In this document: one piece after another, positions 3,452 to 59,715 of the stretch
How the letters are laid out: each line of letters begins with the position of its first letter
How positions within the stretch are numbered: the stretch's first letter is position 1
Assembly: GCA_045652445.1 (NCBI GenBank)
Contig: JAZRUJ010000028.1
Span: 3,478 to 67,477, forward strand
DNA length: 64,000 bases
Origin: Eubacteriales bacterium
Lineage (GTDB): Bacteria; Bacillota; Clostridia; Oscillospirales; UBA644
Direction: 5' to 3'
Notes under the pieces: model-generated
What the model saw: only the letters and a program-made list of their open reading frames with translations
What the model was told of the DNA's origin: nothing
Database searches by the model: none
Program-made: the position numbers and the translations under genes

Positions 3452-5813
3452 AATCGACTACCTCCATTCGAGCTCCGTCAGAGCGAATCGTCACCGTGGA
3501 TAATTGATCCGTCCGTAGAATCTGGGAACCTACCCCCAAGATCCGATCTATCGCTTCTTGGGTTGGGTGTCCATAAGAATTTTTTGCTCCCACGGAGATT
3601 ACGGAATAAACGGGAGTCACAGCATCCAGAAAATTCTTGGAAGAAGAAGATTTGGAACCATGATGGGGAACCAACAGCACATCACAATCCAGACCGGAAC
3701 CGTAGCAAGAAACCAAGCGTGTTTCCGCTTTTGACGTTATATCACCGGTGAACAGCCCCCGATAATTGCCAAATTCACAAAGTCCCACGATGGAGTTTTC
3801 ATTTTGGTCATCGGATGTGGCATCCAAGTGCCGGGTCAAAAGACGAAGATTGGAAGAACCCAGGGATCGTTGGGAATCATCCTCTAAAACCGTCAGAGTT
3901 GCTCCCTCATTTTCCGCCAATACGACAATTTGTGCATAAAGAGAAGCATCGCCCTCTGTATAAGGAATGATGATTTCCTTGATTTCTTTTTCCTCGCAGA
4001 GATCTTCCAAACCATTGGCGTGATCATCGTGAAGATGAGAGATTAAAACAAACTCAACTTCGTTAATCCCCGCAGACGTAAGATAATCGGATGCTACCAT
4101 CCCCGGCTGTTTTGTTCCGCCGCAATCCACCACATAGGCTTGTTGATTTAAAATCGTAACAATGCAATTCCCCTGACCAACATCCAAAAATGCTGTTTGC
4201 AAAACATTTTCCGAGGGGGCAACGTCTCCCACCGTAATACGGGAAGAAACCGATTCTGCAGCCTGATAGATCGTCAAAAGGGAAATTGCCGCAAAAACCA
4301 AGGAAATTCCTCTGCGAACCATTCGTTTCTTTTTCTTTTTTGAAGTAGTTTTAGGCATGGGGAGAAAATAAATTAACGCGGCAAGAATCAGCATAACAAC
4401 AGCAAAAATCCATTGTAATGCCGGAGGAACCATTTCCACCGCGTCCATCCATGATACGGCGAAAGAAGAACAATAGATCATAAATTTTACTCCATAGCTA
4501 ATTAATAACCCGAGAATTTTACAAAATGGTGAGAATACAGAAATTAACGCAATTAGAAGCAAAATCAACGCTCCGAAAAAGCATAATTGCAAGATCGGAA
4601 GCAGTATGGGAGACAAAAATAACGACCATACGGAATAAGAATCTAACCGCATCCAAAGAATGGGCAAGGTTAAGATAAAAGCAGAAACCGAAACGCTAAA
4701 CAAGGAAATGAGGTTCCGCAAAACAGACCCGCAAATCACATGACAGCGAACAAATAACCATTGTATAATTGCTTTAATAACGGGGGAAGAAAACAATAGA
4801 ATGCCCAACGCTGCACAAAAAGATAATTGAAAAGACAGAGACCATACGGAGTATGGCGAAACCAAAAGGATTACAATCGCAGAAAGACCCAGCCGATTAA
4901 ACGGCTCCGTGCGAACAGAGACCCATGTGCCTCCAAACACAATAAGGTTCATGATAACGGCTCGACAAACCGAAGGTGTAAATCCTGAAAAAAGCAAAAT
5001 AATCCCGAGAGACAAAACCGATAGAATTATTTGAAGCCGTATGTCCCTCATTTTTTGAAGGAAAAATAAAACGAAAGAAATAAAGACCGAAACGTGAAGT
5101 CCGGATACCGCAACCACGTGAAGCATACCGGTTTGTTGTAATACCTGATAATCTCCCGAAGACAAGGTATCTTTATTTCCCGTAAGAACAGCGTTCATAA
5201 ATCCGCCTTCATCACCTCCGATATACCGGAGAAAGGTGGTATAAGCGTATCTACGAAGGGAAGAACTTACGGTATAAAAAGACGGTTCCGGCTCGGCAGC
5301 GATAACCTCTTGGGGATTGCGAATTACCCCGATCAACGCCACACCGTCGGAGAGATTTTCCAAAAAGTATACGTCTTTTGGGCGGGAAAAGGTAAATTCT
5401 GCCGTAACCGTTCCACCGCCGTCCGTATAATAAACAGAGCTAAAAAAGACAATTTTTTGAGAAAACGGTCCGTCCACGGGTTTTGCAACGTATCGATACG
5501 AACCTGTAGAAACGACTTTCGGATCCTCAGTTAATTGCACCGTTGCAGTAACGGTTTTTCCATCATATGTATCAACTGTGCGATAATAATCCGTTACCGG
5601 AAAATAAAGAATCAACGTGGAGATCAGAAAACAGCAGAGTGCAAATAAAAGATCTCTTAACCAACGAGTTTTGTATAATACGAACAGAGCCGTAAAAATC
5701 CCGACACCGAAAAGAGAAATCAGGAATCCCGAAAGAAATGCCCCGGGAAAATACCAATACAGCAATGCCGCAATACAAAGAACTACAGCTCCAAGAAAAG
5801 ACGCCCGTTTCAT
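3441..5813 (-). CDS. comEC: DNA internalization competence protein ComEC/Rec2
   Basis: 790 aa polytopic membrane protein. It has a central competence domain and a C-terminal metallo-beta-lactamase motif (VLISHLHDDHANG). Confidence 0.9.
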   Translation of the reverse strand: MKRASFLGAVVLCIAALLYWYFPGAFLSGFLISLFGVGIFTALFVLYKTRWLRDLLFALCCFLISTLILYFPVTDYYRTVDTYDGKTVTATVQLTEDPKVVSTGSYRYVAKPVDGPFSQKIVFFSSVYYTDGGGTVTAEFTFSRPKDVYFLENLSDGVALIGVIRNPQEVIAAEPEPSFYTVSSSLRRYAYTTFLRYIGGDEGGFMNAVLTGNKDTLSSGDYQVLQQTGMLHVVAVSGLHVSVFISFVLFFLQKMRDIRLQIILSVLSLGIILLFSGFTPSVCRAVIMNLIVFGGTWVSVRTEPFNRLGLSAIVILLVSPYSVWSLSFQLSFCAALGILLFSSPVIKAIIQWLFVRCHVICGSVLRNLISLFSVSVSAFILTLPILWMRLDSYSVWSLFLSPILLPILQLCFFGALILLLIALISVFSPFCKILGLLISYGVKFMIYCSSFAVSWMDAVEMVPPALQWIFAVVMLILAALIYFLPMPKTTSKKKKKRMVRRGISLVFAAISLLTIYQAAESVSSRITVGDVAPSENVLQTAFLDVGQGNCIVTILNQQAYVVDCGGTKQPGMVASDYLTSAGINEVEFVLISHLHDDHANGLEDLCEEKEIKEIIIPYTEGDASLYAQIVVLAENEGATLTVLEDDSQRSLGSSNLRLLTRHLDATSDDQNENSIVGLCEFGNYRGLFTGDITSKAETRLVSCYGSGLDCDVLLVPHHGSKSSSSKNFLDAVTPVYSVISVGAKNSYGHPTQEAIDRILGVGSQILRTDQLSTVTIRSDGARMEVVDYES

Positions 5814-55770: not shown

Positions 55771-56691
55771 ATGAATCTTTTGCACATGAAGCATGCGTTG
55801 GAGGTAGCAAAAGCCGGTTCTCTGAGTAAAGCTTCGGAGGTTTTACTGATTGCGGCCCCGAACATTAGCCGTTCCATTAAGGAGCTGGAAACTGATCTTG
55901 GAATTACGATCTTTGACCGCACGCAAAACGGAATGAAGCTAACCCCTGACGGAGAAGAATTTATTAACTTTGCCAAGGGAATTCTTGGACAAATTGATGA
56001 GGTTGAAAAATTTTATAAAGCCGGTGCCCCGAAAAAACAAAAGTTTTCTATTTCCGTCCCCCGTGCCTGCTATATTTCCGAAGCCTTTGCCAATTTTTCC
56101 AGATCGCTAACAAAAGATTCTGCCGAGATTTTTTATAAAGAAACGAACTCCCAACGCACCATACGCAATATGGTAGAACACGATTATAAACTAGGCATTA
56201 TCCGATATGCGGAAAATTATGACAAATATTTCAAATCTATGCTGGAAGAAAAGGGCTTTCAGTACGAATTGGTCACAGAATTTACCTACTCCTTGATCAT
56301 GAGTGCAGACAACCCTTTGGCAAAGAAAGAGCAAATTACGTTTGAAGATCTGACCAATTATATTGAAATAGCACATGCGGATCCCTACGTTCCCTCTATG
56401 CCTCTTTCCAAAGTGATAAAGGAAGAACTGCCCGATAATATTGACCGAAGAATTTTTATTTTTGAACGTGCAAGTCAATTTGATTTGTTATCTTTGAATC
56501 CCGAAACCTTTATGTGGGTCTCCTCTGCATCGAAGAGTTTACTGGATCGGTATAATTTAGTTTTGAAAAAATGTGATGACAATAAAAAAATATACAAAGA
56601 CGTTTTGATTTACAAAAAGGGGTACGAATTATCAAAACTTGACCGTCAGTTTATTGCAAACCTGTGCGAATCGAAGCGAAAGCATATATAA
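55771..56691 (+). CDS. LysR-family transcriptional regulator
   Basis: N-terminal HTH (MNLLHMKHALEVAKAGSLSKASEVLLIAAPNISRSIKELE) and a C-terminal substrate-binding domain. Confidence 0.85.
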   Translation: MNLLHMKHALEVAKAGSLSKASEVLLIAAPNISRSIKELETDLGITIFDRTQNGMKLTPDGEEFINFAKGILGQIDEVEKFYKAGAPKKQKFSISVPRACYISEAFANFSRSLTKDSAEIFYKETNSQRTIRNMVEHDYKLGIIRYAENYDKYFKSMLEEKGFQYELVTEFTYSLIMSADNPLAKKEQITFEDLTNYIEIAHADPYVPSMPLSKVIKEELPDNIDRRIFIFERASQFDLLSLNPETFMWVSSASKSLLDRYNLVLKKCDDNKKIYKDVLIYKKGYELSKLDRQFIANLCESKRKHI

Positions 56692-56791
56692 TCTCCCTCA
56701 AAGTTTCCTCTTTTTTTGTTATCAATACAGGTGTTATCGATAATGATAATGCTGATTATCTATTTTAAGAATTTTCAAACCTCAAAAAAAA

Positions 56792-56800
56792 TGGTATAAT
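56792..56800 (+). promoter_or_regulatory. Extended -10 element (TGgTATAAT) upstream of the rex remnant and adhE
   Basis: Sequence TGGTATAAT. I recognise no good -35. An AGGAG follows at 56801. Confidence 0.4.
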
Positions 56801-56818
56801 AGGAGCATACCAAGAAAA

Positions 56819-56991
56819 ATGGAGGTGCCGGTGGTGGAAAAGGCTCGATTTCCAAGGCAACACTGGGAAGACTTCTCATGTATCTAAATTTTTTAAGAGA
56901 CCTGCCGCCGGATAAAGCACCGCACATTTCCGCAACGTCCATCGCTGCACACTTCCACTTGGGAGAAGTTCAAGTTCGAAAAATTGTGTAA
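56819..56991 (+). pseudogene. rex: Frameshifted and 3'-truncated remnant of the redox-sensing repressor gene rex (N-terminal winged helix only)
   Basis: The frame from 56842 reads GSISKATLGRLLMYLNFLRDLPPDKAPHISATSIAAHFHLGEVQVRKIV*. This parallels the Rex N-terminus (..IS.AT..RLP.Y.R.L..L.....ISS.ELA...G....QVRKD). The only ATG (56819, MEVPVVEK) is in another frame. It joins the Rex frame if one A is added to the A4 run at 56838-41. The Rossmann domain is absent. Confidence 0.6.
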
Positions 56992-57012
56992 CATAAATTA
57001 GGAGGATGAAAA

Positions 57013-59715
57013 ATGGAGACTCAAAATCGTTTCATCGTAGACAGTGTGGAAAAGCTGCAGGAAGCTATTGCGCGTACCAGAGCAGCTCAAAAAGTTTTTG
57101 CAACCTACACGCAGGAACAGGTAGATAAAATCTTTTTGGCTGCCGCTTCCGCCGCAAATAAGGCTCGAATTCCTCTTGCAAAAATGGCAGTAGAAGAAAC
57201 CGGCATGGGCGTGGTAGAAGATAAGGTTATTAAAAACAACTATGCCGCCGAATATATCTATAACGCCTACAAAGACACAAAAACCTGCGGTGTAATCGAA
57301 GAAGACAAGGCGTTCGGGATTCAGAAAATCGCGGAACCCATCGGGGTAATTGCAGCGGTTATTCCTACTACAAACCCCACTTCCACCGCAATTTTCAAGT
57401 GCCTTTTAGCTTTGAAAACTCGTAACGCCATTATTATCTCTCCTCACCCCCGTGCAAAGAACTGCACCATCGCTGCCGCGAAGTTGATTTTGGATGCCGC
57501 AGTTGCCGCAGGTGCTCCCGAAGGGATTATTGACTGGATTGACGTCCCCTCTTTGGATATGACCAACACCGTTATGAAAGAAGCTGATATCATTCTTGCC
57601 ACCGGTGGTCCCGGTATGGTTAAGGCAGCTTATTCTTCCGGTAAGCCTGCTCTGGGCGTCGGTGCCGGGAACACTCCCGCCATTATTGACGATTCTGCCG
57701 ACATTTTGTTAGCAGTCAACTCCATTATTCATTCTAAAACCTTTGATAACGGTATGATCTGTGCTTCCGAACAGTCTGTTCTGGTTCTGGAAAACATTTA
57801 TGATGCTGTTAAGACCGAATTTGCCACCCGTGGCTGCTACTTCTTGAACAGCGAAGAAACGGAAAAAGTTCGCAAAACCATTATCATTAACGGTGCGTTG
57901 AATGCCAAAATCGTTGGACAGAAAGCCGCTAAAATTGCGGAACTTTCCGGGTTAACCGTTCCTGCTGACACCAAGATATTGATCGGCGAAGTGGAAAGTG
58001 TAGAACTATCTGAAGAATTTGCTCATGAAAAATTGTCTCCCGTTTTGGCAATGTATAAAGTTAAGACCTTTGAAGAAGCTTTGGACAAAGCCGACAAATT
58101 GGTTGCTGACGGTGGTTACGGTCACACCGCTTCCGTATACCTGAACGACGTTACTGCTCGGGAAAAACTGTCTGCATTCGCAGCTCGCATGAAGACCTGC
58201 CGTATTCTCGTGAATACTCCCTCTTCTCACGGTGGTATCGGAGACTTGTACAACTTCAAATTGGCTCCTTCCCTGACTTTGGGTTGTGGCTCTTGGGGTG
58301 GTAACTCTGTCTCCGAAAACGTTGGAGTGAAACATCTTCTCAACATCAAAACCGTTGCCGAAAGAAGGGAAAATATGCTTTGGTTCCGAGCACCTGAAAA
58401 AGTTTATATTAAGAAAGGCTGCCTGCCCGTTGCCCTCGACGAACTGAAGACGGTCCGCGGCTCCAAAAAAGCTTTCATTGTTACCGATACGTTCCTGTAT
58501 CAGAACGGTTACACCAAGCCCATCACCGATAAATTGGACGAAATGGGCATTACCCATGCCACATTCTTCAACGTTCAGCCGGACCCCACCTTGGCAAACG
58601 CCATCGAAGGGGCAGCACAAATGCGTGCCTTCCAGCCCGATACCATCATCGCTCTGGGCGGTGGTTCTGCTATGGACGCAGCCAAGATTATGTGGGTTCT
58701 TTACGAACATCCCGATGCTGACTTCATGGATATGGCAATGCGGTTTATCGATATCCGCAAACGCGTTTATACCTTCCCCAAACTGGGTGAAAAGGCATAC
58801 TTTATTGCCATCCCCACCTCTGCCGGTACCGGTTCGGAAGTAACTCCTTTCGCCGTTATTACCGACGAAAAGACCGGTGTAAAATATCCCTTGGCAGATT
58901 ATGAACTTTTGCCCAACATGGCAATTATTGACACGGATTTCCACATGTCTGCCCCCAAAGGCTTAACCGCCGCTTCCGGGATTGACGCCGTCACCCACGC
59001 AGTGGAAGCTTATGCAGCAATGCTTGCAACCGATTACACCGACGGTCTGGCTCTCCAAGCTCTGAAGAATATCTTTAAATATCTGCCCCGTGCTTATGAA
59101 AACGGTCAAACCGACGTGGAAGCCCGTGAAAAGATGGCAAACGCAGCTACGATGGCCGGTATGGCATTCGCCAATGCTTTCTTGGGAATTTGCCACTCTA
59201 TGGCTCACAAGTTGGGTGCATTCCATCATCTGCCCCACGGCGTTGCCAATGCCCTGATGATTGAACAGGTTATTCGTTTCAACGCCTCTGAAGCTCCCGT
59301 TAAGATGGGTACTTTCTCTCAATACGATCATCCTCACACCTTGGCTCGGTATGCTGAAATTGCAGATTACCTGGGTCTGGGCGGAAAAAATGATGAAGAA
59401 AAGATGGAAAACCTTATCAAAGCCATCAATGACCTGAAAGCCAAGGTCGGCATCAAGGAAACCATCCGTGAATACGGCATCGGAGAACAAGACTTCCTGG
59501 ACCGTTTGGACGACATGGTAGAACAAGCCTTTGACGATCAGTGCACCGGAGCAAACCCCCGTTATCCCCTGATGAGCGAACTGAAGCAAATGTATCTGAA
59601 TGCTTATTACGGCACCGCGTATACCGATGCAAAAATGCCCACTGCCGTAGATATTGCTACCGAAGGCACTGCCGACAAGGGAAAAGCATCCTACCGCAAG
59701 GGCAAGAAAGCGTAA
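57013..59715 (+). CDS. adhE: Bifunctional acetaldehyde-CoA/alcohol dehydrogenase
   Basis: 900 aa. An N-terminal ALDH domain (catalytic Cys context MICASEQS) is fused to a C-terminal iron-ADH domain (GGGSAMDAAK, HxxxH region CHSMAHKLG). The RBS is AGGAGGA. Confidence 0.95.
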   Translation: METQNRFIVDSVEKLQEAIARTRAAQKVFATYTQEQVDKIFLAAASAANKARIPLAKMAVEETGMGVVEDKVIKNNYAAEYIYNAYKDTKTCGVIEEDKAFGIQKIAEPIGVIAAVIPTTNPTSTAIFKCLLALKTRNAIIISPHPRAKNCTIAAAKLILDAAVAAGAPEGIIDWIDVPSLDMTNTVMKEADIILATGGPGMVKAAYSSGKPALGVGAGNTPAIIDDSADILLAVNSIIHSKTFDNGMICASEQSVLVLENIYDAVKTEFATRGCYFLNSEETEKVRKTIIINGALNAKIVGQKAAKIAELSGLTVPADTKILIGEVESVELSEEFAHEKLSPVLAMYKVKTFEEALDKADKLVADGGYGHTASVYLNDVTAREKLSAFAARMKTCRILVNTPSSHGGIGDLYNFKLAPSLTLGCGSWGGNSVSENVGVKHLLNIKTVAERRENMLWFRAPEKVYIKKGCLPVALDELKTVRGSKKAFIVTDTFLYQNGYTKPITDKLDEMGITHATFFNVQPDPTLANAIEGAAQMRAFQPDTIIALGGGSAMDAAKIMWVLYEHPDADFMDMAMRFIDIRKRVYTFPKLGEKAYFIAIPTSAGTGSEVTPFAVITDEKTGVKYPLADYELLPNMAIIDTDFHMSAPKGLTAASGIDAVTHAVEAYAAMLATDYTDGLALQALKNIFKYLPRAYENGQTDVEAREKMANAATMAGMAFANAFLGICHSMAHKLGAFHHLPHGVANALMIEQVIRFNASEAPVKMGTFSQYDHPHTLARYAEIADYLGLGGKNDEEKMENLIKAINDLKAKVGIKETIREYGIGEQDFLDRLDDMVEQAFDDQCTGANPRYPLMSELKQMYLNAYYGTAYTDAKMPTAVDIATEGTADKGKASYRKGKKA

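Follow-up and report, generated by a model that had tools for sequence, protein, structure and literature searches.

In anaerobic Firmicutes, the repressor Rex couples expression of adhE to the NADH/NAD+ ratio, and its removal is a known route to more ethanol: in Thermoanaerobacterium saccharolyticum, where Rex represses adhE, deletion of rex raises adhE expression and increases the ethanol yield about two-fold (PMC5886521). In Clostridium (Acetivibrio) thermocellum, both genes form a rex-adhE operon, Cthe_0422-0423 (PMC3804516), and Rex is a global regulator in Firmicutes (PMC6391272). Here, we analysed a 64,000-nucleotide (nt) stretch of contig JAZRUJ010000028.1 from an Eubacteriales bacterium (hereafter the window), in which the adhE gene follows a LysR-family regulator gene (lysR) after a gap of 321 nt. 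The segment in this gap is very probably a rex pseudogene remnant, left by an ancestral rex-adhE operon downstream of lysR, with adhE likely being without local Rex control. Formation of a pseudogene by deletion in a known operon type is ordinary gene decay.

A truncated Rex frame between lysR and adhE

One frame of the gap, from 56830, reads GGGKGSISKATLGRLLMYLNFLRDLPPDKAPHISATSIAAHFHLGEVQVRKIV followed by a stop codon. The original prediction recognised a Rex N-terminal winged helix upstream of adhE, and profile searches bore this out. PF06971, the Rex N-terminal DNA-binding domain, matched the remnant with an E value of 2.7e-11 and 43.8 bits against a cut-off of 27, covering profile positions 2–46 of 49. 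A custom hidden Markov model (HMM) of 28 full-length Rex proteins from related loci matched it at HMM positions 4–50, both in the upstream regions (these positions only, E = 1.7e-14) and in a six-frame translation of the window (E = 9.8e-15). With three intact Rex proteins of relatives as tblastn queries, residues 5–50 were aligned at 65% identity (E = 6e-15), while NCBIfam Rex models covered only model positions 6–53 of 217, the best of them at 33.7 bits against a full-length cut-off of 130. Judged by these scores, the similarity to Rex is real, at the coordinates given in Table 1, and far beyond chance.

Table 1. Window coordinates of the rex remnant, its control signals and the flanking genes
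Feature	Start	End	Strand	Details and basis
LysR-family regulator gene, conserved upstream neighbour	55762	56691	+	Pfam HTH_1, E 2e-15; weak LysR_substrate match
Conserved non-coding element (..TCAATACAGGTGTTATCGATAATGATAATGCTGATTATCTATTTTAAGAAT) abutting the -35	56720	56773	+	Candidate LysR operator
Predicted sigma-A promoter, formerly of rex	56772	56800	+	TTTTCA, 17-nt spacer, extended -10 TGgTATAAT; consensus scan
Degenerate counterpart, by position, of the Rex operator in relatives	56791	56808	+	ATGGTAT-AATA-GGAGCAT (ATGGTATAATAGGAGCAT); 7/14 consensus positions
Former rex ribosome-binding site GGAGGTG (56821–56827) and probable ancestral start GTG (56834–56836)	56821	56836	+	Codon-level alignment
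Loss of 1 nt separating the start from the Rex frame	56838	56845	+	A-run 56838–56841 or Ala/Gly codon 56842–56845
Rex N-terminal DNA-binding domain remnant, residues ~5–50	56845	56982	+	SISKATLGRLLMYLNFLRDLPPDKAPHISATSIAAHFHLGEVQVRK; Pfam PF06971, tblastn, HMM
Deletion junction	56981	56983	+	In A-run 56979–56983, 1–2 nt microhomology; pairwise alignments
Retained last five rex codons and stop, out of frame	56984	57001	+	TTG TGT AAC ATA AAT TAG (LCNIN, stop); alignment
adhE ribosome-binding site AGGAGG	57000	57005	+	7 nt before ATG, 8 nt past TAA 56989–56991; conserved in nearly all related loci
adhE, intact bifunctional acetaldehyde-CoA/alcohol dehydrogenase, 900 aa	57013	59715	+	NCBIfam, Pfam
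APH/Bud32-like small kinase gene, 249 aa	59734	60483	+	Pfam APH, E 1e-14; no specific family assignment

Some searches returned nothing for the remnant. A tblastn search with Bacillus subtilis Rex, a query too distant for so short a fragment, gave no match in the window, the remnant included, and the Rex proteins from related loci were used as queries in its place. A PDB search with the remnant alone gave no matches. The sole match of a word-indexed protein search with the 53-residue fragment, P0001, proved to be another truncated rex; as its 676-nt contig may be chimeric, it was left out of the evidence. The closest homologue of the remnant (77% identity) is found in locus L081, positions 1–676 of an ENA metagenome scaffold. 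It is itself a shortened rex of 84 residues and continues into the 5′ portion of a membrane-protein gene in the opposite orientation, which is either a real rearrangement or the product of a chimeric 676-nt contig.

The loss of the NADH-sensing Rossmann domain, as originally proposed, was confirmed, since neither tblastn nor HMM searches matched Rex beyond residue 50 anywhere in the window, and Pfam did not match PF02629, the NAD(H)-binding Rossmann/dimerisation domain, there. A second rex was likewise not found in the window by tblastn or the custom HMM. Of what marks a functional Rex, PF06971 is present, while PF02629 and an uninterrupted frame above the full-length thresholds are absent. 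The frame was thought to stop right after the recognition helix; it ends either at the end of this helix or inside it, and the wing motif GxGKPKxGY, which follows the helix in intact relatives, is missing too.

Comparison with related loci showed an intact rex at the same position. The closest intact relative, L164, has a LysR protein 93% identical to that of the window, followed by a 208-residue rex (PF06971 and PF02629) and adhE, and the complete sequence of its Rex aligns with solved Rex structures (3wg9, E = 2e-34). Left of the junction, the lysR stop, a conserved element, the promoter, the ribosome-binding site (RBS) and Rex codons 1–50 of the window are all colinear with the relatives, the last aligned codons being GAA GTT CAA GTT CGA AAA. 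Since the flanks are colinear with L164, L084 and L016 on both sides, the position is orthologous to that of the intact rex genes. Compared with L164, 458 nt are missing (L164 bases 1341–1799), from just past the codons for EVQVRK to the last five rex codons. Compared with L007, the gap is 461 nt: L007 5490–5509 corresponds to window 56962–56981, and L007 5971–5980 to window 56982–56991. The junction was read from these two alignments, that of L164 being manual; with most comparators, global alignments at low gap cost fragmented. The junction 24-mer had no match in metagenome contigs.

The deletion is out of frame, and the Rex frame terminates at the TAA two foreign codons past QVRK, with the adhE RBS close behind it, as had been noted. 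The retained 3′ codons align with the rex ends of L016 (QLCNKN), L164 (QLCNFN), L007 (QLCK) and L085 (QLCKLN), each followed by the stop, and in these loci the rex stop overlaps the adhE RBS. Deletion of rex in place, as first suggested, is thus supported by the flanks aligning around the gap, with the amendment that the deletion is internal and spares the last five codons and the stop. The sequence TTGTGTAA, put forward as a remaining Rex half-site at 56983–56990, actually lies at 56984–56991, matches the consensus half-sites at 5/7 and 2/7 positions and is homologous to the rex 3′ codons; it represents the coding end of rex and was rejected as an operator.

The 5′ end of the frame was aligned at the codon level with L084, L045, L085, L081 and L016. 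In relatives, the rex start (ATG or GTG) is situated 5–6 nt past GGAGG(T)G. In the window, the Rex frame contains no ATG, GTG or TTG from the stop codons at 56797–56802 to an internal ATG at 56878. Both ATG 56819, which overlaps the RBS GGAGGTG, and GTG 56834 belong to a neighbouring frame that stops after 22 codons, and GTG 56834 is followed by GAA AAG GCT CGA TTT, out of the Rex frame. Addition of one base at the A-run yields GAA AAA GGC TCG ATT, and addition after GC 56843–56844 yields GCN TCG ATT; either insertion gives a relative-like N-terminus, MEK(G/A)SISKATL, comparable to MEKASVSKATL in L084 and MEKTGVTKATL in L045. In the alignment, the loss of 1 nt is well supported, while its place within 56838–56845 is not fixed. 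The frame had been described as broken from its ATG by a 1-nt change in an A-run. The single-nucleotide loss stands, but the ancestral rex start is probably GTG 56834, and the codon at 56842–56845 is a further possible site.

These alignments show that a single internal deletion of about 460 nt, occurring at the short microhomology, removed codons 51 to about 203, which encoded the last part of the recognition helix, the wing and the entire Rossmann domain for NAD(H) binding and dimerisation. The promoter, rex RBS, first 50 codons, last five codons and adhE RBS were left in place, and the 1-nt loss forms a second lesion that disconnects the start codon. From the locus as read, no Rex protein can be made.

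Promoter, operator and the conserved upstream element

The predicted promoter is the best site within 56500–57200 and the single strong candidate between lysR and adhE, a consensus match at 10 of 12 positions plus the TG of the extended -10, and it is colinear with the -10 of relatives, TGtTAAAAT. No terminator-like site was found between lysR and adhE. In many relatives, the Rex box and the -10 of this promoter overlap, and the TG of the box doubles as extended -10. The homologous window position aligns gap-free to the L164 box TTGTTAAAATAATAACGA, and L016 and L084 carry near-identical boxes at the same place. A search for the Rex operator TTGTTAANNNNTTAACAA with up to 4 mismatches gave no site in the 1 kb upstream of adhE, and at 3 mismatches the 64-kb window contained 4 matches versus 6.9 expected by chance. 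Relatives without rex, by comparison, usually keep a box with at most 2 mismatches 30–130 nt upstream of adhE, and their genomes must therefore carry an unlinked rex. The leader was also considered as an RNA element and rejected, with no Rfam match at E ≤1 and a fold z of 0.48, no better than shuffled sequence.

Upstream of the promoter lies a dyad-rich element of about 50 nt, tCGATAnaGGnGTTATCGATAWTGATAATACCGATTATnnATTTTAAGAAT. It occurs once per locus in 45 of the 162 sequences, always just upstream of the promoter (for example L164 1080–1140), at about -40 to -90. In these 45 sequences, it follows lysR and precedes alcohol-dehydrogenase operons, which consist of rex-adhE, adhE alone or a stand-alone Fe-ADH-nfnAB operon; L166 has a second copy (~5270–5330) in front of rex. 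From this co-occurrence, the element probably serves as operator for the LysR-family regulator encoded next to it, whose gene precedes rex-adhE or adhE in at least 35 related loci.

With neither a recognisable operator nor a local rex, adhE would have lost its local Rex control. It is most likely transcribed directly from the former rex promoter, with a leader comprising about 200 nt of rex debris, and the local, autoregulated response to NADH/NAD+ would be gone. The gene presumably still obeys whatever binds the upstream element, probably the LysR-type regulator next to it. By analogy with engineered rex deletions, derepression of adhE is plausible.

Several points weigh against this interpretation. 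A single sequence of the organism supports both the junction and the 1-nt frameshift, and the promoter is a consensus match only. The intact-rex relatives L006, L007, L009, L012, L045 and L087 are also without a good box at the rex promoter, so that a degenerate operator alone is no proof of decay after gene loss. Finally, the search for rex covered the 64-kb window, and a copy elsewhere in the genome could still act on adhE.

The last point leads to the rival account that fares best, in which the pseudogene call is right while a second intact rex still regulates adhE through a non-canonical or distant site, without any derepression. The near-perfect boxes before adhE in many rex-less relatives, with the unlinked rex that they imply, speak in its favour, as does the role of Rex as a global regulator (PMC6391272). 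We nevertheless regard it as improbable, given the missing box upstream of adhE, the chance-level matches across the window and the lack of a second rex there.

Divergence of the remnant and recurrent absence of rex

Among the 50 retained residues, 14 occupy positions with at least 85% conservation across 28 intact Rex proteins. Twelve of them are kept, and two near-invariant residues are changed, namely Pro15 to Leu in the RLPxY motif and Leu41 to Phe. The remnant differs from L164 at 24% of its residues, while intact Rex N-domains at equal LysR distance differ by 6% on average and 17% at most; this excess holds at larger LysR distances too, more weakly. Non-synonymous divergence (pN) between the window and L164 amounts to 0.155 for the remnant, compared with 0.047 for LysR and 0.065 for AdhE. 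Since synonymous sites are saturated in this comparison (synonymous divergence, pS, of 0.83–0.86), no omega value is meaningful. The saturation also indicates that neutral evolution of the remnant takes up only a small part of the period after its split from L164, which fits the observation that most rex-less relatives keep no trace of rex.

A scan of the genome collection for AdhE gave 80 loci with 79–91% identical AdhE, mostly in metagenome-assembled genomes (MAGs) of gut or rumen Oscillospirales/Acutalibacteraceae, in which the conserved order is lysR-(rex)-adhE-small kinase. The position of rex directly before adhE in relatives such as C. thermocellum, as given in the original prediction, proved correct: in 27 of 79 genome loci, including that of Acetivibrio mesophilus (L041), about 20 nt separate the end of a full rex (206–208 residues) from adhE, and rex immediately precedes adhE in many metagenome loci as well. 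The gap between lysR and adhE is bimodal, measuring 113–309 nt without a trace of rex in 18 loci and at least 763 nt in 17, nearly all with rex. At 321 nt, the window is just above the rex-less class, yet contains rex debris.

At the corresponding place, L013 (positions 1–312) shows an independent internal deletion of rex with other endpoints, which keeps residues 1–25 (MKGYSIPKATLGRLRQYLEYLRRLS) and the last ~14 codons (..LSFAYLNNQISK, then the stop). Its promoter with TGcTATAAT and its adhE RBS are intact, and the conserved Pro is lost; like the window deletion, it spares both promoter and adhE RBS. On the AdhE tree, L013 nests among loci with rex, and rex-plus and rex-minus states interleave, although this neighbour-joining tree lacks support values and is built on a weak marker, AdhE. 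The apparent split rex of L090 contains NN, a scaffold gap, and was discarded. The L013 deletion together with the many rex-less relatives indicates recurrent loss; from these comparisons, rex loss at the adhE locus looks recurrent and the window looks like a transient intermediate. A wider reading, which we offer tentatively and hold to be rather doubtful, is that adhE-linked rex has been lost repeatedly in gut and rumen Oscillospirales (Acutalibacteraceae-like) and that, if adaptive, this would be a convergent rewiring of ethanol fermentation from NADH-sensing Rex to LysR via the conserved element, with the window as a transitional state whose repressor and operator are gone.

The same data bear on whether the lesions could be artefacts, with an intact rex in the genome and a 458-nt gap and homopolymer frameshift caused by mis-assembly or base-calling error. 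The organism is represented by a single sequence, and one candidate frameshift site is a homopolymer. However, the breakpoints offer no repeat on which an assembly could collapse, only 1–2 nt of microhomology, and errors do not produce near-invariant substitutions with raised non-synonymous divergence. Moreover, L013 shows an analogous but different internal deletion, and many relatives have no rex at all at this position. An artefact is therefore very unlikely.

Least credible of all is a functional remnant, acting as a small DNA-binding peptide (37 residues from ATG 56878, or ~52–57 residues via a -1 slip at GAA_AAG behind the Shine-Dalgarno-like GGTGGTGG) or as a translated leader tuning adhE: the first 50 codons are still recognisable with most strongly conserved positions kept, and a -1 shift at the A-run would bring the Rex frame in line with the start codon, but Rex binds DNA as a domain-swapped dimer and the wing and whole dimerisation/NADH domain are gone, no RBS precedes ATG 56878, the slippery site departs from the canonical form, a short open reading frame (ORF) identical or similar to it is not on record, the near-invariant Pro and Leu are lost, and other lineages drop the whole gene or cut it differently (L013), which argues against selection for this fragment. 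A rex pseudogene upstream of adhE remains the preferred explanation.

Neighbouring genes and comparison with known systems

The adhE gene itself passes the equivalog threshold of NCBIfam NF010378 (1397.5 bits against a cut-off of 951, residues 5–871) and encodes the Pfam domains Aldedh, Fe-ADH and ADH_Fe_C. Beyond the end of the NCBIfam model at residue 871, AdhE carries a Lys-rich C-terminal tail of about 30 residues (~868–900; window 59614–59715). This tail is variable, and tblastn similarity ends at residue 867 in many relatives. The kinase gene directly follows adhE in about 75 of the 80 related loci. Loci with this pair include MAGs labelled Treponema, Coriobacteriaceae, Erysipelotrichaceae, Anaeroplasmataceae and Bacilli, with AdhE still 79–83% identical, which suggests that the pair is horizontally mobile or that the contigs were mis-binned.

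On the upstream side, a protein search with the window LysR returned the 100% identical P0002 plus closer relatives. Several loci differ in what follows lysR. L008 (1433–4999) has the order lysR, element, Fe-ADH (405 residues), NfnA/NfnB-like oxidoreductase genes, rex, adhE and kinase. In L166 and L167, the alternative order lysR-element-Fe-ADH-nfn is present; in L166, it continues at least into the start of rex, up to the contig end. In the close relative L162 (LysR 93% identical; 2705–2884), the Fe-ADH behind lysR and the element is cut to a 59-residue ORF directly before nfnA, a further deletion in place at this type of locus, and in L095 (~2190–2560) an ORF resembling IS3-family transposase OrfA, as read from its translation, directly follows lysR at the usual place of rex-adhE or adh. 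Neither a stand-alone Fe-ADH nor nfnA is present in the window. The DNA downstream of lysR seems to rearrange readily.

With a dead rex and no operator at its adhE promoter, a gut or rumen bacterium is predicted to run its alcohol and acetaldehyde metabolism constitutively or under LysR control alone. Placed beside its rex-less relatives, the window shows the direction of change, from rex-plus to rex-minus, and the short life of such remnants. In annotation, the appropriate label for this segment is rex pseudogene and adhE leader, and not small ORF or operator. In addition, the conserved element shared by several alcohol-dehydrogenase operons represents a testable candidate operator for an uncharacterised LysR regulator.

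Compared with known systems, the rex-adhE operon of C. thermocellum resembles the ancestral locus, with the same order and orientation and a rex end few bases before the adhE RBS, whereas rex in the window is reduced to codons 1–50 and the last five, is frameshifted and encodes no repressor. With respect to the Rex family (PF06971 and PF02629; structures 3wg9, 2vt2/2vt3 and 1xcb), the window keeps 46–50 residues of the N-terminal DNA-binding domain and lacks the Rossmann/dimerisation domain, the wing and the start codon, which makes it a relic and not a member. The rex-less lysR-adhE loci of gut and rumen Oscillospirales MAGs (L044, L011, L015, L024) share the order lysR, element, promoter, adhE and kinase, also without functional rex. 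Their shorter gaps contain no rex trace and usually a near-perfect box, in contrast to the debris and missing box of the window. In the engineered rex deletions of T. saccharolyticum and also Caldicellulosiruptor bescii (PMC6391272), the repressor controlling adhE was likewise lost. In those studies, rex is unlinked and the adhE promoters carry two intact Rex boxes, while in the window the loss is natural, the operator is also unrecognisable and the effect on adhE expression is a prediction.

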